The notes: a model not told the origin generated them from the letters alone. A stretch of 32,000 nucleotides of DNA from Neglectibacter caecimuris (GCF_034335015.1 NZ_JAWXXK010000008.1:64833-96832), one strand, 5' to 3'. Positions 3,897 to 31,576 are shown, counted from the first letter of the stretch. Made by a program: numbers and translations.

Positions 3897-4704
3897 ATGT
3901 GGAAAAATGATGACGGCATTACTGGTCGCTTTTGTTGTTTGCTTTTCTCTTGCAGGCTGTTCTTTACAGGACAAAATCAAGGAATATTCCAGTAACAAGG
4001 AGCAATGCTATCTGGATGCGGAGAATGTGACGCAATTTTCCTATAAGGGAAATGACTATATCATTTTAGAGGACACCGTATTTAACGGCGGGCTTGGGGA
4101 ATGGGTTGGATATATCCGGCAGCTTACCGCCATAGACGAAGCGGGAAAAGTGTTGCTTCAAGAAAATGTGGAATCTGCCACCTTTCACACGTTGGCAGAT
4201 TTAGCGGAAAAAGCCCCGGAAGCCGCTTATATTATCCCTTTCTTGAATGTGTATGCAGCTCCCAATGCCGACACCTATCTGATTGTAGATGTAAATGGAG
4301 AATACCACAAAGCTATTACACATGAAAAACTGAAAGACACGGATATTGTCTTTGACTTTAAAGAAACGAAACAATCTATAAACGGCAGCTTTGAAGTCAA
4401 CCCGGCAAATGCTACGCAGCTCCTTTGTGATGGGACGGTCTATCAGGTAACGTCTGACGTGGTATCAAATGATGACTTAGGCAGATATATTGATATTCTC
4501 GCAGAAAGCGTTACATTCGATACCGAAACAAAAATCCCTTTTTCAAAGGAGGATTTGAACAAGATTGACTGGAACGGGGAGAATGCCGGGCAGGGGCGGG
4601 AGCAATGGTTTTACACAGATGTTTATGAGATTTATGGAACCGATACAACCGAAGCAGTTGCAGTCAAAGTAAATAACAGCTATCATATCGCAAAGCGGCA
4701 ATGA
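3889..4704 (+). CDS. Secreted lipoprotein of unknown function (candidate LanI-like immunity lipoprotein)
   Basis: Signal peptide with lipobox: MMTALLVAFVVCFSLAG-C. It overlaps the upstream permease stop by 8 nt, suggesting translational coupling. I recognised no domain. Confidence 0.7.
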   Translation: MNKCGKMMTALLVAFVVCFSLAGCSLQDKIKEYSSNKEQCYLDAENVTQFSYKGNDYIILEDTVFNGGLGEWVGYIRQLTAIDEAGKVLLQENVESATFHTLADLAEKAPEAAYIIPFLNVYAAPNADTYLIVDVNGEYHKAITHEKLKDTDIVFDFKETKQSINGSFEVNPANATQLLCDGTVYQVTSDVVSNDDLGRYIDILAESVTFDTETKIPFSKEDLNKIDWNGENAGQGREQWFYTDVYEIYGTDTTEAVAVKVNNSYHIAKRQ

Positions 4705-4765: not shown

Positions 4766-5425
4766 ATGGCAGCAATCCTTATGGTTGATGATGAACAGTC
4801 TATTTTAGAACTTGTCAAAAACGGGCTGCAAAAAGACGGACATCTCGTTACCATCTATACGTCTGCTGCACAGGTGCCACTTGATAAACTGAATAGGTAC
4901 GACTTGATTATACTGGATATTATGATGCCGGATATAGACGGCTTTTCCTATTGTGATAAAATCCGTTCCCTTGTGGATTGTCCGATTCTCTTTCTAACCG
5001 CAAAGACAATGGAAAATGATATTACATTTGGGCTGGGGCTGGGGGCAGATGACTATCTGACAAAACCTTTCCGCATTGCAGAACTCAGGGCACGGGTAAA
5101 CGCTCACTTACGCCGGGAGCACAGAGAACGGCATACGGCTCTTGCTTTTGACAGGATAAAAATAGATTTATCTGCAAAAGAATTACGGGTAGATAATACG
5201 CCTGTTCCCCTGACCAAAAGCGAATACCTGATTTGTGAATACCTTGCCCGGAATAAAGGACAGGTATTTTCAAAGGAACAGATTTACGAAGCGGTTTTTA
5301 GCTTAGAGGGCGACAGTGATAATTCCACCATTTCCACTCATATCAAAAATATTCGGGCGAAATTAAGTAAGTGGGATATTCAGCCGATTGTGACAGTCTG
5401 GGGGATTGGGTATAAATGGGAATGA
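4766..5425 (+). CDS. OmpR-family response regulator
   Basis: Receiver motifs (MVDDE, DLIILDIMMPDIDG, LTAK) plus a C-terminal wHTH ending VWGIGYKW. Confidence 0.9.
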   Translation: MAAILMVDDEQSILELVKNGLQKDGHLVTIYTSAAQVPLDKLNRYDLIILDIMMPDIDGFSYCDKIRSLVDCPILFLTAKTMENDITFGLGLGADDYLTKPFRIAELRARVNAHLRREHRERHTALAFDRIKIDLSAKELRVDNTPVPLTKSEYLICEYLARNKGQVFSKEQIYEAVFSLEGDSDNSTISTHIKNIRAKLSKWDIQPIVTVWGIGYKWE

Positions 5426-6965: not shown

Positions 6966-6966
6966 A

Positions 6967-7748
6967 AAGACTTTGAAGAACTTTTGAAGAAGCTGGAGGC
7001 GGCTGGGATTGAAGTCAACCAAGAGCGGAAGTACCTCCGTTTTCGCCTGTCGCCGGAGGATCGATATAGCCGGTGTGACACGCTAAAGGGCGACTATACC
7101 GAGCAGGCCATCAAAGAACGGATCGCCGGCACCCGGACGGTGAAGCCGCGTCGTACCTCTCCCCAAAAGCCGGTTTCCAAAGTCGGCCTGCTGGTGGATA
7201 TTGAGTCGGCGATCCGTTCCGGCAAAGGGCCGGGGTATGAACGCTGGGCGAAGGTGTTCAACTTAAAGCAGCTTTCCCAGGCGGTGATCTGGCTCAAAGA
7301 GCATGGCGATATGAGCTATGAGGATTTGCAGAAAAAATCAGATGCCGCTACCGCCAGCTTCAATGCGTTGTCGGTACAGATCAAGGAACTGGAATCACAG
7401 ATGACCGCCAACGGAGAGCTGCAGAAACAGATCGTAAATTATGCCAAGACGCGGGCGGTCTATGTGGAGTACCGGAAAGCCGGGTACAGCAAAAAGTTCC
7501 GCGCGGCGCATGAGACGGAAATCCTTCTGCACCAGGCGGCGAAGAAACACTTTGACGAGCTGGGGATCACAAAGCTGCCCTCCATCAAATCTCTGCGGGA
7601 GGAATACGCCGGACTTCTGGAACAGAAACGAAAAGCCTATTCTTCTTATAAGCAGGCCAGAGCCGATATGAAAGAGCTTTAGTTAAAGCCAATGGACTAT
7701 CTGTTGGGCGGGTCTGTGATGGAACGGGAGCGGGATAATGCACGCTAG
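6967..7748 (+). pseudogene. 5-prime-truncated relaxase gene fragment (C-terminal ~260 codons) with an in-frame premature stop
   Basis: Collinear with 837-1627 of the intact relaxase. It lacks the whole HUH nuclease domain. TAG at 7680-7682 replaces the Tyr codon of copy A, and residual homology (DYLL...) continues in frame to TAG at 7746-7748. The ORF-track start at 6825 is read-through from unrelated sequence. Confidence 0.8.
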
Positions 7749-14546: not shown

Positions 14547-14639
14547 AATGAGCTTTTTGCATAGAACGCTGGAATACAACAGGAATATTAGTTGATGGTA
14601 AAAGAATAAATACCCACACTACGGAAAGGGGGCGGCGAC

Positions 14640-15138
14640 ATGGGAAATTAGCTGTATTTGATATATCTGAACCGGGCGGTAGAATTGCGGAAAAGCTGCT
14701 TGTTCTGTTAAACGCCCGTCAGCGTCGGGAATTAGTAAACTATCTTCTTGATTCCGAAAAACAACAGAATAATCTGGCTGACAGCCCATGTGCCATTCCC
14801 GAAACTTATAAGGTGCAGACAGTCATTGATGAACCGTTCACAGAGATTCAAATGAACAATTTATATTTCTGCCAGGAACAACGGCTTGTATGTATTGGCG
14901 AGCAGGTAATTGAATTAACCGCTAAGGAATTTGACATCCTTGCTTTGTTGATCACACACCCGAAGCGGGTATTTACTTATGAGCTGATTATGGAATTGGT
15001 CTGGAATGAGGATTATTCCTATTACTCCCGCAAGGCAGTCAATAATCATATAAGTAATCTGCGGAAGAAATTGAAAATTACGCCGGATTCCCCGGACTAC
15101 ATCAAAAGCGTTGTTGGCGTTGGATATAAATTTGAAGT
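14640..15138 (+). repeat. Direct repeat copy 1 (wHTH regulator gene), collinear with 27557-28055
   Basis: Constant offset of 12917 bp with no indels. Weaker similarity extends about 35 bp further upstream. I counted 10 aa differences in 109 aligned residues by eye. Confidence 0.9.
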
Positions 15139-15280: not shown

Positions 15281-15350
15281 CGGCTGATAATGTGACAGCA
15301 TTTTTGCACATAATAAAGATATATTGATCGAAGCAGTAAGGAGTAATGCA

Positions 15351-16049
15351 ATGAATGAAAAAATTTTAGTGGTTGATGATGAAAAAGAGTTGGCCGATTT
15401 AGTGGAAGTCTATCTGAAAAACGATGGATATACCGTTTATAAATTTTATAACGGCACGGATGCGTTAAAGTGTATTGAGTCCACCCCTCTGGATTTAGCC
15501 ATATTGGATATTATGCTCCCGGATATTGATGGCTTTCAAATTTGCCAGAAAATCCGGGAGAAATTTTATTTTCCTGTGATTATGCTGACGGCAAAAGTTG
15601 AAGATGGGGATAAAATCATGGGGCTCTCCGTTGCAGATGATTATATTACCAAACCCTTCAATCCTCTGGAAGTGGTTGCCAGAGTAAAAGCGCAGTTAAG
15701 ACAGTACATGAGATACAGGCAACCATCACTCAAACAGGAGGATGAACGCAGCGAATACGATATAAGAGGAATGACGATCAGCAAGATCAGCCATAAATGT
15801 ATCTTGTTTGGAAAAGAGCTCGGGCTGACGCCAACGGAGTTCTCTATTCTCTGGTATCTGTGTGAAAACCAGGGTAAGGTTGTTTCAACAGAAGAATTAT
15901 TTGAAGCGGTATGGGGCGAAAAATACATTGATAACAATAATACCGTTATGGCCCATATCGGACGTCTCAGAGAGAAAATGAACGAACGGGCCAGAAATCC
16001 GAAATTCATAAAAACTGTGTGGGGAGTGGGATATACCATTGAAAAATAA
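15351..16049 (+). CDS. vanR: VanR-type response regulator (vanD-type cluster)
   Basis: SD AAGGAG at 15338-15343 and ATG at 15351 (MNEKILVVDDEKELADLVEVYLKNDGY). It is an OmpR-family receiver plus wHTH and the first gene of the R-S-Y-H-ligase-X cluster. Confidence 0.9.
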   Translation: MNEKILVVDDEKELADLVEVYLKNDGYTVYKFYNGTDALKCIESTPLDLAILDIMLPDIDGFQICQKIREKFYFPVIMLTAKVEDGDKIMGLSVADDYITKPFNPLEVVARVKAQLRQYMRYRQPSLKQEDERSEYDIRGMTISKISHKCILFGKELGLTPTEFSILWYLCENQGKVVSTEELFEAVWGEKYIDNNNTVMAHIGRLREKMNERARNPKFIKTVWGVGYTIEK

Positions 16050-17184
16050 AAAGAAAACAAATTATGAAGATGATTATTTGCTTTTCAAAAACAGATTATC
16101 CATCAAAATGCTGCTCATGATGGTTTGTTCCCTTCTGATTATAGCGGTTGTTTATCTGTTTATTTTAAAAGGAAATTTTGCAAATGTCGTAGTAGGCTTT
16201 TTAGAACGCTTTGTCTACTATGACCGCGACGAGGCTGTGTCTGTCTATCTTAGAACCTTCAAGAGATATGAGATATGGCTTTTCCTGTTGGCGGTTCTGG
16301 GTGTGTTTTTTGTGATTTTTCGCATGTTTGTGGGCAATGTTTCAAAATACTTTCAGGAGATCAACCGTGGAATTGATTCCCTGGTGAATGAAGATGCCCA
16401 GGATATTGCCCTTCCGGCAGAACTTGCCTCAACAGAAAGAAAGATAAATTCCATACGGCATACCCTGACGAAAAGAAAATCGGACGCCGAGCTTGCAGAG
16501 CAAAGGAAAAATGACCTTGTTATGTATCTGGCCCATGACTTAAAAACCCCTCTTTCATCGGTGATCGGATATTTGACCCTGTTAAGGGACGAAGGCCAGA
16601 TTTCCGATGAACTTAGGGAACGGTATCTAACCATATCATTGGATAAGGCAGAGCGCCTTGAAGATTTGATTAACGAATTTTTTGAGATTACACGGTTCAA
16701 TCTTTCCAGTATTACGCTTGTATACGGCAAAATCAATCTGACGAGGATGCTCGAACAGTTGGCATATGAGTTTAAGCCGATGCTGGCCGGGAAAGACCTC
16801 AAGCTGGAATTTGAAATGCAGCCGGATATTTTTGTTTCGTGTGATGCAAACAAGATGCAGCGTGTATTTGATAACCTGTTGCGAAACGCTGTCAGCTATT
16901 GTAATGCAGATACAAGCATTAAGATAATTACAGAGCAAATAGAAGATCAAGTGCTGATTAAAGTCGTAAATGAGGGAAATACAATCCCGCAGGAACGATT
17001 AGAAAGAATATTTGAGCAATTCTACCGCCTGGATGTATCACGAAGTTCAACCACTGGCGGAGCCGGCCTGGGACTAGCCATTGCAAAGGAGATTGTTGAA
17101 CTTCATCACGGGCAGATTACCGCCCACAGTACGGACGGCTTTACCTGCTTTGAGGTATCATTGCCGCTCGTAGGAAAATCGTAA
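16039..17184 (+). CDS. vanS: VanS-type sensor histidine kinase
   Basis: The TTG start overlaps the vanR stop by 11 nt. It has two N-terminal TM segments, H-box LAHDLKTPLS, N-box NLLRNAVSY and G-box GGAGLGLAIAK. The 381-aa ORF is intact. Confidence 0.85.
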   Translation: MKNKKKTNYEDDYLLFKNRLSIKMLLMMVCSLLIIAVVYLFILKGNFANVVVGFLERFVYYDRDEAVSVYLRTFKRYEIWLFLLAVLGVFFVIFRMFVGNVSKYFQEINRGIDSLVNEDAQDIALPAELASTERKINSIRHTLTKRKSDAELAEQRKNDLVMYLAHDLKTPLSSVIGYLTLLRDEGQISDELRERYLTISLDKAERLEDLINEFFEITRFNLSSITLVYGKINLTRMLEQLAYEFKPMLAGKDLKLEFEMQPDIFVSCDANKMQRVFDNLLRNAVSYCNADTSIKIITEQIEDQVLIKVVNEGNTIPQERLERIFEQFYRLDVSRSSTTGGAGLGLAIAKEIVELHHGQITAHSTDGFTCFEVSLPLVGKS

Positions 17185-17233
17185 GAAATTCCGCTAAAAA
17201 TCATATATTATCCGCAAAGGAAAGCGAAAACAT

Positions 17234-17281
17234 AAATCGCTCCATTCTGATATGCTATATATCGGGTGGAGCGATTTTTTT
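17234..17281 (+). terminator. Hairpin plus T-run between vanS and vanY
   Basis: AAATCGCTCCA (17234-17244) pairs with TGGAGCGATTT (17267-17277). The loop is 22 nt and the T-run extends to 17281. The loop contains TGcTATAT (17253-17260). Confidence 0.5.
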
Positions 17282-17308
17282 ACTTCCAGAAAGGAGTTTG
17301 GGATAACG

Positions 17309-18361
17309 ATGGAATATCAGAACAATAACGGAAACTACGATAACAGGAACCGGAGGAAATCAAAAAAGAAAAAAGGGGGTTATTACAGAGCTGTATGTAT
17401 CGTGCTCTGTTTACTCATAGCCGTTACAGCATTCGGAATTGTGAATCTGATAAGGAGCGGCAAAGAAACCCCTATCCCCAGCAAAAAGGTTACTCAAAAT
17501 AATGAGGCTTATTCTCTTGGGGATAGCGGACAAAACAAGACGGTTTCCCCGTCCCTTGACTTAAGCAATTCTCTTTCCGTAGACATCACGGCGGCAAATG
17601 CTATTGTAATCAATGCTGATACCAATGAGACATTGTATCAGAAAAGCGGAACAGACAAAATTGCGCCGGCCAGCACAGCTAAGATGATTACAGCATTGAC
17701 AGTGCTGGACTATTGTTCCCCGGACGATGAAATGAGGGTAGGCGCGGAAATTGAAATGATGTCTGGTGATTCGTCAAGGGCATGGCTTATGCAGGGCGAT
17801 ACCCTGACCGTCAGACAGCTCTTAATTGCCCTTATGCTTCCCTCCGGCAATGACGCAGCTTATACGCTCGCGGTGAATACCGGAAAGAAAATTGCCGGAG
17901 ATAACGGCTTGTCAGATGCGCAGTCCATTGATGTGTTCATGGATAAAGTAAATGAGAAGGCCAAGACGCTTGGGGCTGAAAGCTCAAACTTTGTAGTCCC
18001 GGACGGATATGACGCCGATGGGCAGTATACTACGGCCTACGATCTCGCGGTTATTGCAAAGGCATGTTTGGATGACCCTTGTATTTCGGAGATCGTGGCA
18101 AGCTATTCGTCTTATGAAAGATGGCCGAATGGCCGGGAAGTCACTTACAACAATACAAATGAACTTCTCAATCCAAACAGCCAGTATTATCGGCCAGAAG
18201 TGATCGGCCTAAAAACGGGAACCAGCAGTCTCGGCGGCGCCTGTATCGTTTCTGCTGCTGTCATTAACGGGAACACCTATATCTGTGCAGTCATGGGCTC
18301 CACTGAGAACGACAGATTCCAGGACAGCATTGATATTATCGACGCAATTAAAAACCAATAG
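17309..18361 (+). CDS. vanY: PBP-type (S11-like) D,D-carboxypeptidase, VanY of the VanD type
   Basis: SD AAAGGAG at 17290-17296 and ATG at 17309. It has a basic N-terminus and a TM anchor. The penicillin-binding motifs SxxK (ASTAKM), SxN (PSGND) and KTG (LKTGTS) are all present. Confidence 0.8.
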   Translation: MEYQNNNGNYDNRNRRKSKKKKGGYYRAVCIVLCLLIAVTAFGIVNLIRSGKETPIPSKKVTQNNEAYSLGDSGQNKTVSPSLDLSNSLSVDITAANAIVINADTNETLYQKSGTDKIAPASTAKMITALTVLDYCSPDDEMRVGAEIEMMSGDSSRAWLMQGDTLTVRQLLIALMLPSGNDAAYTLAVNTGKKIAGDNGLSDAQSIDVFMDKVNEKAKTLGAESSNFVVPDGYDADGQYTTAYDLAVIAKACLDDPCISEIVASYSSYERWPNGREVTYNNTNELLNPNSQYYRPEVIGLKTGTSSLGGACIVSAAVINGNTYICAVMGSTENDRFQDSIDIIDAIKNQ

Positions 18362-18380
18362 AATACTAAGGAGGGAACCA

Positions 18381-19352
18381 ATGAAGAAAAAGATTGATAT
18401 TACTGTTTTTGGATGTGAGCCGGACGAAGCAGCGGTTTTCCATAAACTTTCCCGTGAATTTGGCGTTACGGTCTCACTCATAGGAGAAGCCGTATCGGAA
18501 AACAATGCAAAATTAGCGGAAGGATGCCAGTGTGTCAGTATAAGCCACAAAGCGGAACTATCAGAACCTCTCCTTCTTGCGCTGAAAAGTGCCGGCGTAA
18601 AATATATCTGCACCCGGAGTATCGGTTTCAACCATATTGATATACAGGCAGCCGGGCAAATGGGAATGACCATCGGCACGGTTGCATACTCACCAGGGAG
18701 CGTCGCCGACTATGCCATTATGCTGATGCTTATGCTGATGCGTGGAACAAAATCCGTAATACACAGAACAGAAAAACAGGATTATTGCCTGAATAACCTT
18801 CGCGGGAAGGAACTGCGGGATATGACGGTTGGCGTGTTAGGGGCAGGACGGATCGGACAGGCAGTGATGGAACGCCTGAAGGGATTTGGCTGTAGGGTGC
18901 TGGCATATGACCGCAATCGTAAGGCAGGAGCAGACTATGTTCCGTTTCGTGAACTGCTGCAAAGAAGCGACATCATTACGCTTCATGTCCCACTGGCAGA
19001 AGATACTTTCCATATGATTGGCCGTGAGCAATTAGAAATGATGAAGAAAGAGGCGCTTCTTATCAATACAGCGCGGGGCGCTTTAGTGGACACCGAGGCA
19101 TTGGTAGACGCGCTGGCAGATGGGAGAATTGGAGGCGCCGCCTTAGATGTACTGGAAGGCGAAGAAGGGGTTTTTTATTATGACTGCACGCACAAGGCGT
19201 TAGAACATCCCTTTTTATCGGCCCTACAAAGGATGCCAAATGTAATTGTTACGCCGCATACTGCCTACCATACGGAACGGGTGTTGGTTGACACAGTGAG
19301 CAATACGATTCGGAATTGTCTGAATTTTGAAAGGAGTCTTGGAAATGTATAA
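18381..19352 (+). CDS. vanH: VanH D-specific 2-hydroxyacid (D-lactate) dehydrogenase
   Basis: SD AAGGAGG at 18368-18374 and ATG at 18381. NAD-binding motif GVLGAGRIGQAV and a C-terminal TPHTAYHT catalytic region. Confidence 0.9.
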   Translation: MKKKIDITVFGCEPDEAAVFHKLSREFGVTVSLIGEAVSENNAKLAEGCQCVSISHKAELSEPLLLALKSAGVKYICTRSIGFNHIDIQAAGQMGMTIGTVAYSPGSVADYAIMLMLMLMRGTKSVIHRTEKQDYCLNNLRGKELRDMTVGVLGAGRIGQAVMERLKGFGCRVLAYDRNRKAGADYVPFRELLQRSDIITLHVPLAEDTFHMIGREQLEMMKKEALLINTARGALVDTEALVDALADGRIGGAALDVLEGEEGVFYYDCTHKALEHPFLSALQRMPNVIVTPHTAYHTERVLVDTVSNTIRNCLNFERSLGNV

Positions 19353-20376
19353 GATAAACGTTGCGGTCCTGTTTGGGGGCTGCTCAGAGGAACATACTGT
19401 CTCGATAAAATCTGCAATAGAGCTTGCCGCAAACATAGATACGGGAAAATATCAGCCTTTTTATATTGGGATCACAAAATCCGGCGTTTGGAAACTGTGC
19501 GAAAAGCCCTGCCTGGATTGGGAACGATATGCAAAATATCCGGTCGTCTTTTCGCCGGGAAGAAATACGCATGGCCTGCTGATACAAAAAGATGATGGAT
19601 ATGAAATACAGCCTGTGGATGTAGTATTTCCAATGATTCATGGCAAATTTGGGGAAGATGGATCAATACAGGGGCTGCTCGAACTGTCGGGTATTCCTTA
19701 TGTTGGCTGTGATATTCAAAGTTCCGTGATTTGCATGGACAAATCGCTTGCTTATACCGTTGTAAAAAATGCAGGTATCGAAGCCCCCAATTTCCAGCTC
19801 ATCCAGGACGGCGGCAGCCCGGAAACAGAGAAGTTTAGTTTTCCCCTTTTTGTGAAACCTGCACGCTCTGGTTCTTCCTTTGGCGTAAACAAGGTAGATA
19901 AAGCGGAGGATTTATGTGCAGCGATAAATGAAGCAAAGCAATATGACAGAAAAGTATTGATCGAGCAGGCGGTTTCCGGGAGTGAGGTCGGCTGCGCCGT
20001 ATTGGGAAATGGTACTGACTTAATTGTTGGCGAGGTCGATCAGATCAGCCTGAAACACGGATTCTTTAAGATTCACCAGGAAGCACAGCCAGAAAAGGGG
20101 TCTGAAAATGCAACGATCAAAGTTCCGGCTGACCTTCCGACAAAGGTAAGGGAACAGATTCAGGAAACAGCTAAGAAGATTTATCAGACACTTGGGTGCA
20201 GAGGCTTGGCCCGCATTGACCTGTTTTTGCGGGAGGACGGGCAAATTGTCCTCAATGAAGTGAATACCATGCCTGGTTTTACTTCGTATAGCCGCTATCC
20301 CCGCATGATGACTGCGGCAGGCTTTACCCTTTCGGAACTCATTGACCGTTTGATTGAACTGGCTCTCAGGAGGTAA
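19345..20376 (+). CDS. vanD: D-alanine--D-lactate ligase. VanD type is assigned from operon architecture.
   Basis: ATG 19345 overlaps the vanH stop. The sequence runs MYKINVAVLFGGCSEEHTVSIKSA ... FKIHQE ... PEKGSENA ... NEVNTMPGFTSYSRYPRMM, a Van ligase signature including the His of D-Lac-type enzymes. It is flanked by vanH and vanX. Confidence 0.85.
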   Translation: MYKINVAVLFGGCSEEHTVSIKSAIELAANIDTGKYQPFYIGITKSGVWKLCEKPCLDWERYAKYPVVFSPGRNTHGLLIQKDDGYEIQPVDVVFPMIHGKFGEDGSIQGLLELSGIPYVGCDIQSSVICMDKSLAYTVVKNAGIEAPNFQLIQDGGSPETEKFSFPLFVKPARSGSSFGVNKVDKAEDLCAAINEAKQYDRKVLIEQAVSGSEVGCAVLGNGTDLIVGEVDQISLKHGFFKIHQEAQPEKGSENATIKVPADLPTKVREQIQETAKKIYQTLGCRGLARIDLFLREDGQIVLNEVNTMPGFTSYSRYPRMMTAAGFTLSELIDRLIELALRR

Positions 20377-20381
20377 ACACG

Positions 20382-20990
20382 ATGGAAAAGAATTTTGTTT
20401 TTTTAGATGAAATGCTGCCCGGTGTCCGTTGGGACGCCAAATATGCCACATGGGATAATTTCACTGGTAAACCGGTGGACGGATATACGGTAAACCGTAT
20501 TGTGGGAACGAAAGAGTTGGGAGCTGCTTTACGCAAAGCTCAAAAACTTGCCAGAAAACAAGGATATGGTCTACTCTTATGGGACGGTTATCGCCCTCAG
20601 TGTGCCGTAGATTGTTTTCTACACTGGGCGTCACTCCCGGAGAACAATCTGACGAAAAAGCGGTATTACCCAAATATAAAGAGGAATGAGATGGTTACAA
20701 AGGGATATGTGGCTTCACAGTCCAGCCACAGCCGCGGAGGTGCAGTTGATCTCACGATTTTTTATTTAGATACTGGTATGCTTGTTCCTATGGGCGGTGA
20801 CTTTGATTTTATGGATGAACGGTCCCATCATACTGCAAGCGGTCTGACAGAAGCGGAATCAAGAAACCGGGAATGTCTGTGTCATATTATGGAAAGCAGC
20901 GGATTTGAAGCCTATTGTAACGAATGGTGGCATTATGTTCTGGCAGATGAACCGTACCCAAATACATATTTCAATTTTTGCATTTCATGA
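20382..20990 (+). CDS. vanX: VanX D-Ala-D-Ala dipeptidase
   Basis: 202 aa. Zn-ligand motifs SSHSRGGAVD and EWWHY, with the N-terminus FVFLDEMLPGVRWDAKYATWDNFTGKPVDGY. Confidence 0.9.
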   Translation: MEKNFVFLDEMLPGVRWDAKYATWDNFTGKPVDGYTVNRIVGTKELGAALRKAQKLARKQGYGLLLWDGYRPQCAVDCFLHWASLPENNLTKKRYYPNIKRNEMVTKGYVASQSSHSRGGAVDLTIFYLDTGMLVPMGGDFDFMDERSHHTASGLTEAESRNRECLCHIMESSGFEAYCNEWWHYVLADEPYPNTYFNFCIS

Positions 20991-27470: not shown

Positions 27471-27556
27471 GGCTAACTTTTAAAAGGCAGTAAAATTTGG
27501 GTATTCGATTGAAACGACGAAATAAATGCCTATACTGGCGGAAGGGATGTGACGAT

Positions 27557-28055
27557 ATGGGAAATTAGCTGTATTTGATGTATCTGAACCGGGCAGCAGA
27601 ATTGCGGAAAAGCTGCTCATGTTGTTAAGCGCCCGTCAGCGTCAGGAGTTAGTAAATTATCTTCTCGATTCTCAAAAGCAACAGAACAATCCGGCTGACA
27701 GCCCATGTGCCATTCCCGAAACTTATAAGGTGCAGACAGTCATTGATGAACCGTTTACAGAGATTCACATGGGTGATTTATACTTCTGCCAGGAACAACG
27801 GCTTGTATGTATTGGGGAGCAGGTAATCAAATTAACAGCTAAGGAATTTGACATCCTCGCTTTGTTAATTACTCACCCGAAGCGGGTATTTACTTATGAA
27901 CTGATTATGGAATTGGTCTGGAACGAGGATTATTCCTACTACTCCCGCAAGGCAGTCAATAACCATGTGAGTAATCTGCGGAAGAAATTGAAAATCATAC
28001 CTGGTTCCCCGGACTACATTAAAAGTGTTATTGGCATTGGTTACAAATTTGAAGT
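27557..28055 (+). repeat. Direct repeat copy 2 (wHTH regulator gene), collinear with 14640-15138
   Basis: See copy 1. The offset is 12917 bp. Confidence 0.9.
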
Positions 28056-28062: not shown

Positions 28063-28346
28063 TAAAGACCATGAGGCAATTTTATTTGTCTTGTGGTCTT
28101 TATCATAATATGGGGATCTTTTGTAAAATCCGTTCGAGACCGTGATTACCTTAAAACACACTTTATATAAGCCTTACCAGAACTATGATATTTCAAGGAA
28201 AAATATAGAATTTACCCCTATATAATTTCCCCAAAAGGAGGCTGATGAAGGATAGGCCTTCTGCGCTTCCTTTTCGGGGAGGGCTGATAAATGCTGCCAA
28301 AGGGGAATGTTCAACAGAAAGGTTATTTTGCATATAGAGCTTTATG

Positions 28347-28382
28347 CGCCGTAATCCATGTGGTGTGGATTGCGGCGTTTTT
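28347..28382 (+). terminator. Rho-independent terminator inside the leader of the sigma-factor gene
   Basis: CGCCGTAATCCA (28347-28358) pairs with TGGATTGCGGCG (28366-28377), 12 bp including one G-U. The loop is 7 nt and TTTTT follows at 28378-28382. Confidence 0.7.
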
Positions 28383-28562
28383 AAGTTTGACCGCATTTGA
28401 GGAAATACTTTATCATACATCTTCCTGCGCGCCCAATCTTTTATGGGCGCGCATTTCATATATAAGCGGCTGTTACAACAAGGGTTATCCGCGCTGCCGC
28501 TCCCCACCCTCTGATTTCGATTTTGCTTACCACCCTAAAAATCGAAATTGGAGGAATTACCC

Positions 28563-29012
28563 ATGAAAGAAATCAATCTGCGGGATTACTACCCGTTTTA
28601 TACACAGGACGTTATTGTTGAAGTGCCGGACGAGGTGGCTGATCTGCTCCGAGAGTATAAGCTGGCTGAAGCCGCCTATATCCTGCGTACATACCGTCAT
28701 AAGGCATATTTTTCTCTTGATTATGATGCCAACGTGGAGCGTGATGCGCTGGTGATCGTCCTGACACCAGCCGAAATTCTTGAACAGAAGGAGGAAAATG
28801 CCCGACTGTATCAGGCGCTTGCTTCCCTACCGGAGAAACAACGAAACCGGATAGCCTCGCATTTCCTGCTCGGCATGAGCATATCGGAAATTGCAAAAAG
28901 CGAGGGTTCCGGCGTCAGCTCCGTGCATGAAGGAATCCAGCGCGGACTTCGGCGTTTGAAAAAAGTTTTAGAAAAAATGGATACAGACCCCGAAAATAAT
29001 GCCCGAAAATGA
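28563..29012 (+). CDS. Sigma-70-family protein (region-4 HTH) typical of ICE regulatory modules
   Basis: SD GGAGG at 28550-28554 and ATG at 28563. C-terminal region-4-like HTH: LPEKQRNRIASHFLLGMSISEIAKSEGSGVSSVHEGIQRGLRRLKK. Confidence 0.75.
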   Translation: MKEINLRDYYPFYTQDVIVEVPDEVADLLREYKLAEAAYILRTYRHKAYFSLDYDANVERDALVIVLTPAEILEQKEENARLYQALASLPEKQRNRIASHFLLGMSISEIAKSEGSGVSSVHEGIQRGLRRLKKVLEKMDTDPENNARK

Positions 29013-29692
29013 AATGAATAATAGAGGGACATATTCGGCGGGACAAGCCTGATGGGTGTGGCCGTACAGCACATGCTCCGGCCCGCCCCGAATGTAAAAA
29101 TGTCATAACTGCCACGCCCCTCGCTGTTCCTTGACAACCGAATATACGTTGCTGTAGGTACGTCATTCTGTGTTCCGAGCGGCAAATGGGGCGGCGCAAA
29201 GACAGGCAGCTAAGGAGGTGATGAATCCGGCTATCCGAGCGATCCACGCAACTCATTGACCCGGCTGTGGCAGGCCGGGCGCGACGACGGCACAGATCAT
29301 AATGGTACTTTTTCACAATCCCTCACAGACTTGAAGGGAAGTCCCTGCGGTGTGCGCTTGCTCTGGCAAAGCGGCGGCATTTGTGGGGCTATGATGCGGT
29401 AAAGCTGGCCGCAGCCTATGGCAACCCCGCTTTGTGTAAACAGGGCTGCCGGGGGGCGTGGCAAATACGGCAAACAAAATCGAAATCAGATACAATGGGC
29501 CGGGTCTGTGGTTCTGGATGCCGCAGGCCCGACCTATTCATGTGGTTTTGATAATTCCACACACAAATTCAAACTATGGATAAATCGTAAATTTTTCAAT
29601 TAGCAGCAGACAAATGGCAGGCGGCGCGGTAGAATAATGGTAGGAAGTCATATCCCGCACACTGTCTTTGTCGGATGCAGAAAGGAGGGAAA

Positions 29693-29899
29693 ATGAGCCA
29701 GACAACAAACAGTGTGCAAAGAAATGTTCCCGAACAGAGGACTTACAAAGTGGAGGATATTGCTGCCATGCTGAATATTGGCCGCACTTCTGCTTATAGT
29801 CTGGTAAAAGAGGGTCATTTCAAAATTGTACGGGTTGGTAATGCCATACGAGTTTCCAAAAAATCATTTGATGAATGGTTAGACGCACAGACGTTCTAA
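29693..29899 (+). CDS. xis: Excisionase / helix-turn-helix DNA-binding protein
   Basis: SD AAAGGAGGG at 29681-29689 and ATG at 29693. HTH: YKVEDIAAMLNIGRTSAYSLVKEGHFKIVRVGNAIRVSKKSFDEWL. It lies directly upstream of int. Confidence 0.8.
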   Translation: MSQTTNSVQRNVPEQRTYKVEDIAAMLNIGRTSAYSLVKEGHFKIVRVGNAIRVSKKSFDEWLDAQTF

Positions 29900-29919: not shown

Positions 29920-31305
29920 ATGGCATCTATTATCAAACGTAAAAAATCTTATTCCGTTGTTTACAACTATGTTGATGAAAATGGAGAAACGAAACAGAAA
30001 TGGGAAACTTGGCATACCCATAAAGAAGCCCTGAAACGGAAAGCAGAAGTTGAGAACCAGCAGAACAACGGCACATTTCTTCCTCCGAACAATCAAAAGG
30101 TATCGGATTTTCTGTATGACTTTGTTTCCACCTATGGAGAGAAAAAATGGGGCGTGTCTATGTATGACGGCCAAACAGCCCTGATTGCCAACTATATCAA
30201 TCCGATTATCGGAGACATGGAGGTTCAGGACATTACTCCCCGCGTGGTGGACAAGTACATTCAGACCCTTCAAAAGACGCCTTCTGTTTCCAGGAAGAAC
30301 CGGAAAGCCCGGACGGAATTTGTTACCAACCAGACCATTGAAAAGATTATCAAGCTGCTCCGCTGTGCTTTCAAGCAGGCGGTAAGATGGGAACTGATCG
30401 GGAAAAACCCTTTTGATAATGCGGTCCTTCCAAAGACCGAGTACAAAAAGCGGGACATCTGGGATGCGGAAACAATTCGTCTGGCGCTGGATCAGTGTAC
30501 GGACAGTAAGCTGTATATCGCCATGAATCTTGCTTTTGCGTGTTCTCTGCGTATGGGAGAGATTCTTGGACTAACCTGGAAAAATGTTCACATTGAGGAT
30601 GAAAATATTGCAGCGGACAATGCTTATATTTACATAGAGGCAGAGCTGACAAGGGCCTCCAAGCAGGCTATTGAAATGTTGGGGCAAAAAGATATTTATT
30701 ATATTTTTACCCCGCTCATGCCGAATACCAGTACCCGCCTGATTCTGAAAAAGCCGAAAACAGATTCCAGTGTCCGTAAGGTATGGCTGCCTAAAACGGT
30801 TGCCTATATCCTCCGTGAATGGAAAAAGTCGCAGGAAGAATTAAAGGGATTTCTCGGTGACGAGTACCAGGATTTTGACCTGGTGGTTGCGTTGCCAAAT
30901 GGCAGACCTTGCGAAAATCGGATTATCGAGAAAGAGTTTTCACTGTTGAAACAAAAGGCGGAGCTCCCTAACGTCGTCTTTCACTCTTTGAGACATTCCA
31001 GTACAACTTACAAGCTGAAACTCAACCACGGCGATCTGAAGGCCACACAGGGCGATACAGGACATGCAGAGATAGATATGATTACAAAGGTCTATGCTCA
31101 CATTCTCGACGAGGACCGCAAGATCAATGCGCAGAAATTTGAGAGTGCCTTCTATGCGAATCCTGATTTGAGGAAGGTAACGCCTCCGCAAGAACAGCCT
31201 CAGGCACAGACTGTAGACCTTGCGGCATTGATCGAACAGCTTCAAAAATCACCGGAGCTTGCAAGTACGCTGGCGGCGCTGATTGCAGGCCAAAAAGCGG
31301 TCTGA
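29920..31305 (+). CDS. int: Tyrosine-type site-specific recombinase (integrase) with an N-terminal arm-binding domain
   Basis: 461 aa. Catalytic residues sit in LRMGEILGL (Arg), HSLRHSSTT (His-x-x-Arg) and KVYAHIL (Tyr). The N-terminus MASIIKRKKSYSVVYNYVDENGETKQKWETW resembles arm-type binding domains. Confidence 0.95.
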   Translation: MASIIKRKKSYSVVYNYVDENGETKQKWETWHTHKEALKRKAEVENQQNNGTFLPPNNQKVSDFLYDFVSTYGEKKWGVSMYDGQTALIANYINPIIGDMEVQDITPRVVDKYIQTLQKTPSVSRKNRKARTEFVTNQTIEKIIKLLRCAFKQAVRWELIGKNPFDNAVLPKTEYKKRDIWDAETIRLALDQCTDSKLYIAMNLAFACSLRMGEILGLTWKNVHIEDENIAADNAYIYIEAELTRASKQAIEMLGQKDIYYIFTPLMPNTSTRLILKKPKTDSSVRKVWLPKTVAYILREWKKSQEELKGFLGDEYQDFDLVVALPNGRPCENRIIEKEFSLLKQKAELPNVVFHSLRHSSTTYKLKLNHGDLKATQGDTGHAEIDMITKVYAHILDEDRKINAQKFESAFYANPDLRKVTPPQEQPQAQTVDLAALIEQLQKSPELASTLAALIAGQKAV

Positions 31306-31499: not shown

Positions 31500-31576
31500 T
31501 GGCGTCCCAGAGAGGATTTGAACCTCCGACCCCACGCTTAGGAGGCGTGTGCTCTATCCAACTGAGCTACTGGGAC
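31500..31576 (-). tRNA. tRNA-Arg (anticodon CCU), CCA-encoded
   Basis: The minus-strand sequence is GTCCCAGTAGCTCAGTTGGATAGAGCACACGCCTCCTAAGCGTGGGGTCGGAGGTTCAAATCCTCTCTGGGACGCCA. It folds into a full cloverleaf with acceptor 7 bp, D stem GCTC/GAGC, anticodon stem CACGC/GCGTG with loop CTCCTAA, and T stem GGAGG/CCTCT. Confidence 0.9.

Follow-up and report, generated by a model that had tools for sequence, protein, structure and literature searches.

Gene content and boundaries of the region upstream of xis

Between the end of a sigma-like gene (29012) and the start of xis (29693), the window, i.e., the whole 32,000-nucleotide stretch of Neglectibacter caecimuris DNA that was analysed (NZ_JAWXXK010000008.1:64833-96832, positions counted from its first letter), contains the interval 29013-29692. 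The features of this locus are listed below with the evidence for each of them; A1 is the alignment of homologues described in the following section.

28387-28416 (+): promoter-like TTGACC-18-TATCAT located 5' of the sigma-like gene, from a consensus scan only
28563-29012 (+): gene for an Orf7-like sigma-70 region-4 protein of 149 aa (Pfam Sigma70_r4_2)
29013-29127 (+): variable 5' flank, kept in close relatives only and absent from distant homologues
29128-29554 (+): canT-like structured RNA core of 427 nt with 15 helices (alignment A1, RNAalifold, covariation, strand test)
29575-29662 (+): conserved xis promoter block (blastn against 80 loci, alignment, promoter scan)
29693-29899 (+): xis (excisionase-like), 68 aa (Pfam HTH_17)
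29920-31305 (+): tyrosine integrase, 461 aa (Pfam)

Only short ORFs, overlapping one another on both strands, were observed inside 29013-29692, and no other gap between ORFs of 90 aa or more was as long anywhere in the window, in agreement with a preliminary description of an ORF-free interval between the sigma gene and xis. Its G+C content was 0.53-0.56, compared to 0.35-0.47 in the flanks. The same description had treated the interval as a single object. The region is indeed genuine and noncoding, but it is a composite of three parts: the 5' flank, the core, and the promoter block. The first genes found 3' of the core are xis and then the tyrosine integrase gene.

The promoter block was kept 5' of xis in nearly all Tn1549-like loci, as determined by blastn against the 80 loci described below, and the promoter scan detected within it a promoter-like CAGACA-17-TAGAAT at 29607-29635. 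Transcripts starting at this site would lack the RNA core, and this last ~90 bp is the only part of the region with the appearance of a promoter or operator acting at the DNA level. The promoter-like site located 5' of the sigma-like gene is a candidate start for the RNA-carrying transcript, comparable to Porf7 of Tn916. Two strong terminator-like hairpins (28346-28378 and 28426-28453, plus strand) were observed on either side of that site; they could keep read-through from the cargo genes out of the transcript that carries the regulator and the antiterminator, or they could serve as an attenuator.

The host element is a vanD-bearing integrative conjugative element. A complete vanD-type vancomycin resistance operon is present as element cargo at 15324-20990, with VanR-D, VanY-D, VanH-D, the VanD ligase, and VanX all scoring above the NCBIfam curated cut-offs and a histidine kinase in the VanS position. 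Two pairs of long direct repeats were detected, with a reported length of 300 nt in each case that is probably an underestimate. One pair (836-1135 and 6966-7265, 94% identity) duplicates part of the relaxase gene, and the other (14622-14921 and 27539-27838, 89% identity) duplicates the winged-helix regulator region. Since the two pairs together bracket cargo blocks, they suggest accretion by recombination between related elements. A tRNA gene with the anticodon CCU (taken from the cmscan alignment; it would be a tRNA-Arg) lies on the minus strand at 31503-31576, ~200 nt past the integrase gene. A tRNA with the anticodon CCU was likewise found beyond the integrase in two divergent relatives, at 4813-4886 (-) of L033 and at 4265-4338 (-) of L072. 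The presence of a tRNA next to the integrase in the window and in both relatives suggests a conserved integration site beside the tRNA, in contrast to the promiscuous insertion of Tn916.

A conserved RNA structure on the sense strand

Using the Xis protein as a query and keeping one genome per species, we collected 80 loci. A segment of ~540 nt (29013-29553) was conserved, at 79-99% identity, in only 14 of these 80. One 17-mer, GCGTGGCAAATACGGCA, was invariant, and a query with this 17-mer retrieved 104 further loci from IMG/VR. In all, nhmmer identified 117 homologues of the core. The distant ones, at about 60% and 48% identity, covered only positions ~29128-29538 of the window, their nhmmer matches beginning at model position 124. 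The conserved core was therefore placed at 29128-29554 and the upstream segment was assigned to a variable flank. The closest copy was found in a metagenome-assembled genome of an uncultured Blautia (99.6% identity over 680 bases), together with the flanking sigma, xis, and int genes.

The genomic position of the core is fixed. In every locus with upstream sequence (~100 loci), the core lay directly 3' of the sigma-like gene and on the same strand, with an identity among the sigma-like genes of 42-100%; a winged-helix regulator gene was usually present ~950 nt further 5' of the sigma-like gene. The genes located 3' of the core were either xis and a tyrosine integrase gene or a DUF6870 gene and three large serine recombinase genes. 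Since the downstream module differs among loci, the core goes together with the regulator gene and with the start of the recombination module, and not with one particular recombinase.

Searched by blastn, the region had no match in a collection of 72,556 plasmids; a search of the same collection for Tn1549 itself gave no close relative of Xis. Among phage records, the only blastn match to the region was an unannotated 7-kb "Bacteriophage sp." scaffold. More than 100 contigs filed as viral (L001, MT837243.1; L082-L185, from IMG/VR) carry the RNA and the sigma-like gene, together with three large serine recombinases or with xis-int. These contigs look like integrative (conjugative or mobilizable) elements rather than phages.

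Alignment A1, composed of 28 representatives with 48-97% identity, was used as the input for RNAalifold, which returned 112 pairs in 15 helices. The following elements were recognized within the core.

29131-29147 (+): conserved 5' motif UUGACAACCGAAUAUAC, near-invariant in alignments A1 and A2 and aligned to Tn916 by nhmmer and by a covariance model
29148-29425 (+): domain closed by a 12-bp long-range helix (helix 2, 29148-29159 with 29414-29425)
29167-29296 (+): 5' multi-helix domain, helices 3-7 (RNAalifold, covariation); covariance model R1, described below, was built on this half
29212-29225 (+): Shine-Dalgarno (SD)-like AAGGAGGUGAUGAA in the loop of helix 6, near-invariant in the subfamily
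29299-29308 (+): AUAAUGGUAC motif, at least 90% conserved (covariance-model alignment)
29319-29413 (+): helices 8-10 (covariation), at the same position as the pemK motif of Tn916 canT
29430-29472 (+): helices 11-12 and the invariant 17-mer GCGUGGCAAAUACGGCA at 29456-29472 (alignment, covariation)
29479-29552 (+): long 74-nt 3' hairpin, helices 13-15 (covariation; 7 of the 10 inner pairs covary)

Conservation of this region is of the RNA type. Over the 112 pairs of A1, 96.2% of the cells were able to pair, compared to 38-41% when the 3' partners were slid. Covariation, which had been proposed as a check in the preliminary description, was abundant: 52 of the 112 pairs showed double (compensatory) changes, versus 12-19 in the slid controls, and none of 500 shuffles reached any of the observed measures. 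The best-supported helix was the long-range closing helix, with compensatory changes in 10 of its 12 pairs. For the opposite strand, the proportion of cells that pair fell to 80.2%, versus 96.2% on the plus strand, and the sense strand contained 535 G-U cells versus 36 A-C cells, so that the plus strand is the folding strand. The folding energy of the single sequence was ordinary on either strand (z = -0.56 and -0.15); support for the structure thus rests on covariation and is comparative, not thermodynamic. We conclude that the core is a structured RNA on the sense strand, which is genuine and well supported.

In the most distant member, L132, the 3' hairpin is retained with a different sequence, and the SD-like loop is altered. 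The sequence at 29212-29225 includes a perfect 11-nt Shine-Dalgarno sequence. An AUG lies just 2 nt downstream of it, and no ORF that could follow is conserved. A pseudoknot between the SD-like loop sequence GUGAUGAA and UUCUUCAC at 29309-29316 was considered and rejected, as inspection of A1 by eye revealed mismatches and no compensating changes.

Several individual elements had been pointed out before the comparison was made. Two of the three pairings proposed at that time belong to the conserved structure. The hairpin at 29260-29279 corresponds to helix 7 (CCGGCT/GGCCGG at 29261-29278, around a conserved GUGGCAG loop), in which 4 of the 6 pairs show double changes, and the hairpin at 29501-29531 corresponds to helix 15, with double changes in 7 of 10 pairs, and forms the inner part of the long 3' hairpin. 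The third, a long-range pairing of 29034-29042 with 29082-29092, is present in this sequence but did not hold up in the homologues, in which 61% of the cells pair compared to 42-53% after sliding, i.e., no better than the control. An alternative fold of the 5' flank, in which GAGGG would pair with CCCUC around an inner hairpin, was only weakly better than its controls. As previously stated, no RNA family could be matched: a search of the region against Rfam 15 gave no family at the gathering thresholds and nothing relevant at E values up to 5.

A recurring motif, GGCAAA followed by a GGCGGCG-like sequence, had also been reported at four places, and an array of regulator binding sites controlling xis-int had been proposed as one explanation. 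GGCAAA does occur four times in the region, and the combination GGCAAA-N0-6-GGCGGC occurs twice (29181 and 29365), whereas 0.04 occurrences are expected in the whole window. The reported fourth copy of the motif (29611-29629), however, does not contain GGCAAA and forms part of the xis promoter spacer. The copies are found in different helices and loops and therefore do not represent a repeated binding unit. A protein-binding array on DNA would fit the recurrence of GGCAAA-type motifs and the adjoining regulator genes, but the substitutions preserve base pairing and not motif copies, and conservation in the core follows base pairing. As to a decayed pseudogene, no reading frame was open across the homologues in the A1 comparison, none of the homologues had an intact gene at this position, and single-base indels made up 108 of the 127 pairwise indels. 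An array or a pseudogene is, in our view, hardly credible as an explanation of a region whose core is a structured RNA.

Relationship to canT of Tn916 and to the pemK motif

In Tn916, the region that separates orf8 from xis encodes the canT RNA (Wirachman & Grossman 2024, PLoS Genet, PMC11658703). It is a cis-acting, orientation-specific, processive antiterminator that reads through heterologous terminators placed downstream, and it is needed for transcription of the conjugation genes after excision and not for excision (PMC11658703). It acts only in cis, needs no element proteins, and requires neither replication nor transfer, being active in a chromosomal reporter if transcribed in the sense orientation (PMC11658703). 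Its authors pursued no structural or comparative analysis beyond single-sequence folds (PMC11658703), and we found no comparative or structural analysis of canT in the literature searched.

We then compared the core with canT, using a Tn916 locus from pCF10 (L186) as the reference. Covariance model R1 (183 positions, 29 pairs) was built on the 5' half of the core from 28 window-type sequences, with Tn916 left out. R1 matched Tn916 over the full model length at L186 2163-2332 on the plus strand, with 45.8 bits and an E value of 1.4e-8, and the next match reached 10 bits. The matched segment falls within the antiterminator region that had been defined by experiment (PMC11658703). Similarity to Tn916 was significant for the 5' half of the core only, the 3' half being weak. 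R1 also matched nearly all other Tn1549-like loci, on the right strand and 250-400 nt 5' of xis; the best of these matches had 42 bits (E value of 5e-6), and many of the weaker ones came from near-identical copies.

Functionally defined positions of canT are shared by the two RNAs. The active 452-bp canT fragment begins 126 nt past the orf8 stop (PMC11658703). This start corresponds to L186 2166, where the conserved motif UUGAMAACUGAAUA begins (29131 in the window); the 5' motif of the window, UUGACAACCGAAUAUAC, matches UUGAAAACUGAAUAAAAG, the first bases of the Tn916 fragment. The equivalent of the variable 5' flank falls outside the active fragment. The S3 mutation, which inactivates canT, changes ATA to TGC 283 nt past the orf8 stop (PMC11658703). 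In the reference, this site is L186 2323-2325, where the sequence reads ATA, and it is aligned to 29299-29301 in AUAAUGGUAC. AUAAUGRUAC is conserved at 29299-29308, its first three bases being the AUA changed by S3 and also corresponding to the opening bases of the Rfam pemK consensus. In Tn916 canT, a 12-bp closing helix (L186 2182-2193 with 2438-2449) was predicted in the MFE structure and likewise in the centroid structure. Tn916, L016, and L072 thus each have a closing helix equivalent to that of the window, formed by unrelated sequences.

The genetic context is shared as well. The window and Tn916 have in common the gene order Orf7-like sigma, RNA, Xis, and Int, in which the RNA follows orf7/orf8-type regulators, precedes the recombination genes, and has the same orientation. 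Over region 4, the Orf7-like sigma protein shares 35% identity with Orf7 of Tn916, and the window Xis is 25% identical to that of Tn916. In line with the orientation specificity of canT, the fold and its excess of G-U over A-C cells are those of the sense RNA. The core is thus homologous to canT of Tn916. The TTGACA present at 29131 was also considered as a promoter, and it was rejected because no usable -10 was found and because the Tn916 fragment that starts from that motif is active under a foreign promoter.

A strand-specific, G+C-rich fold on a conjugative element, with a conserved TTGACA at the 5' edge of the core, could also be a structure of single-stranded DNA, i.e., an sso or a single-strand promoter that would operate once the excised circle has been transferred or has undergone rolling-circle replication. 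However, G-U/G-T wobbles account for 17% of the paired cells, a proportion much better suited to RNA than to DNA, the promoter scan provided no -10 partner for TTGACA, and activity of the Tn916 homologue was observed in a chromosomal reporter in which sense transcription is required and neither replication nor transfer takes place. We consider a single-stranded DNA element very unlikely and favour a transcribed RNA as the probable active form. An origin or partition-like locus of the excised circle, another role envisaged in the preliminary description, likewise found no support, while the large regulatory RNA suggested there agrees with both the sense-strand covariation and the homology to canT, a proven RNA element.

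Motifs of the pemK type are widespread 5' of mobile-element genes in Firmicutes, and we know of no function for them. The motif is reportedly one of the candidate cis-regulatory motifs from Weinberg et al. 2017; the word pemK is absent from the main text of that article. In Rfam, pemK (RF02913, ~61 consensus positions, gathering score of 34.8 bits) is classed as 'Cis-reg'. It matched Tn916 canT at L186 2323-2423 with 55 bits, inside the experimentally defined region, and it matched L016 (2753-2851), L072, L070, L033, and L055 with 36.7-65.6 bits. Every pemK match started at AUAAUGAUAC, where the R1 match ends, and the start in Tn916 coincides with the bases changed by S3. Moreover, the inactivating 162-nt canT deletion (L186 2269-2430) takes out the whole pemK match. 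Neither pemK nor Rfam is mentioned in the canT paper (PMC11658703), and no paper linking canT and pemK was found in the literature searched.

In the window, pemK gave a collinear but weak alignment of 13.4 bits at 29299-29394 in a 196-nt search and no match at E values up to 5 in a 1.8-kb search; the distant window-type members L133, L132, and L150 were also negative. Since 13.4 bits is below the gathering score, the window RNA is not a pemK member by the Rfam criterion. The pemK layout is a 5' AUAAUGAUAC, three hairpins, and a 3' AUGA; of these, the 5' motif, AUGA, and two hairpins in collinear order (helices 8 and 9) were seen in the window, where P1 is absent and P3 contains a 47-nt insertion. 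The window RNA represents a remodelled branch, with helices 11-12 and the 17-mer, the long 3' hairpin, and the SD-like AAGGAGGUGAUGAA loop as additions. A second Rfam motif, SQ2397 (RF03532, 'cis-regulator of HTH transcription factor'), was detected 5' of orf7 in Tn916 (L186 874-1103, 230 bits) and, weakly, in two Tn1549-like loci (L070 1215-1397 and L016 1336-1482); it was not found 5' of the sigma gene in this window.

The SD-like loop raises the question of an action in trans or on ribosomes, in which base pairing between the AAGGAGGUGAU loop and the 16S rRNA 3' end would serve for 30S recruitment, for sequestration, or as a standby site. In favour of such a role, the perfect 11-nt SD sequence is near-invariant, with L132 as the only exception, and is exposed in the loop of a hairpin although no conserved ORF follows. 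However, its sequence is absent from Tn916 and from the pemK-type relatives, which have other loops at that position, so that the SD-like sequence lies outside the shared core, and canT acts only in cis (PMC11658703). We thus regard an action in trans or on ribosomes as highly improbable for the RNA as a whole, although the loop may have acquired a ribosome-directed role as an additional function of this branch.

Proposed antitermination and comparison with known systems

Based on its homology to canT, we propose that 29128-29554 probably encodes a divergent canT-type, cis-acting processive antiterminator RNA. The RNA would be transcribed as part of an mRNA starting 5' of the Orf7-like sigma gene, presumably from the candidate promoter described above. 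The nascent RNA would fold cotranscriptionally, with the 12-bp long-range helix closing the 5' and pemK-like domains, followed by the 3' hairpin. The folded RNA may then bind the polymerase that made it and render this polymerase terminator resistant, allowing antiterminated transcription to proceed through xis and int. After excision and circularization, transcription would run across the joint, pass the presumed insulating terminators, and reach the genes for DNA processing and conjugation. Transcripts initiated at the xis promoter (29607-29635) would lack the RNA and would not be antiterminated. The scan gave no plus-strand terminator in the segment from int to the end of the window; the key terminator of Tn916, T1, is located at the left end, which in the present element lies beyond the window. 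The likely job of the RNA differs from the control of xis-int suggested previously and would be, as in Tn916, the read-through of terminators into conjugation genes.

A cis-regulatory leader, i.e., an attenuator or a ligand- or protein-responsive switch, could control xis-int or the DUF6870 and serine recombinase genes without any processive change of the polymerase. The RNA is always located directly 5' of recombination genes, the related pemK motif carries the Rfam label 'Cis-reg', and the distance from the end of the 3' hairpin to the following start codon is about 25-140 nt, all of which such a leader would explain. On the other hand, the Tn916 homologue is dispensable for excision and acts on heterologous terminators placed downstream (PMC11658703), a separate conserved promoter is located between the RNA and xis in the window, and the genes found downstream belong to unrelated recombinase families. 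We consider a leader unlikely and favour processive antitermination.

Processive antitermination couples conjugation-gene expression to excision in Tn916, and canT was defined genetically in 2024 (PMC11658703). The class of antiterminator is thus already known; new are the variant described here, the family-wide structure, and the pemK connection. The present analysis provides a diverse homologous family of 117 loci, reaching down to about 48% identity, with a secondary structure supported by covariation; it links canT to the orphan Rfam motif pemK and indicates that the same RNA precedes tyrosine- and serine-recombinase modules. Most likely, the RNA lets the vanD element express its transfer genes after excision, by passing stop signals. 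Since a complete vanD operon is carried by this element of a Lachnospiraceae-like gut anaerobe, the spread of vancomycin resistance may plausibly be controlled at the level of this RNA, which is also a tractable subject for structural work on the reprogramming of RNA polymerase by RNA.

A broader proposal, to which we give an even chance of being correct, is that pemK is the functional heart of canT-type antiterminators. The true unit would then be of ~340-430 nt, consisting of 5' and pemK-like domains closed by a long-range helix, and the window would belong to a remodelled branch that escapes detection by pemK, carries a loop resembling a ribosome-binding site, and drives the transfer genes of vanD elements in gut Clostridia. 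If true, this would provide a function for many pemK motifs on mobile elements of Firmicutes as well as the first covariation-based structure of canT.

Among known antitermination RNAs, conAn2 of pLS20 and related Gram-positive conjugative plasmids also acts in cis (PMC8191782). Similarly to the RNA described here, conAn2 is a large (260-600 nt) cis-acting RNA heading a long conjugation operon, but it needs the ConAn1 protein for long-range action (PMC8191782), whereas the gene located 5' of the window RNA encodes a sigma-70 region-4 protein; the lack of a blastn match to the region among the plasmids searched also sets it apart from conAn2. The put RNA of phage HK022 and the EAR RNA of Bacillus eps operons act in cis as well and render the polymerase terminator resistant without a dedicated element protein (PMC11658703, PMC8191782). 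Both are much smaller (about 70-120 nt) than the 427-nt core. With pemK, the window RNA shares the 5' motif AUAAUGAUAC and the collinear order, but the unit conserved here is of about 430 nt, compared to ~61 consensus positions.

The closest counterpart is canT of Tn916, which resembles the window RNA in its position before xis-int, in its strand, and in its size (427 nt in the window, compared to 340-452 nt for active canT). The motif at the start of the active fragment, the AUAAUGRUAC motif, and the long-range closing helix are also common to both. In contrast, the G+C content is 38% in Tn916 canT and about 55% in the window RNA, and the pemK-like part is remodelled in the window, with P1 missing and 47 nt inserted. 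The Tn916 fragment runs into xis, whereas the window RNA stops before a separate xis promoter. Finally, Tn916 canT is devoid of the SD-like loop, of helices 11-12 with the invariant 17-mer, and of the 74-nt 3' hairpin. Since the SD-like loop and the long 3' hairpin are without counterpart in Tn916, the branch represented by the window could have an added or altered function.
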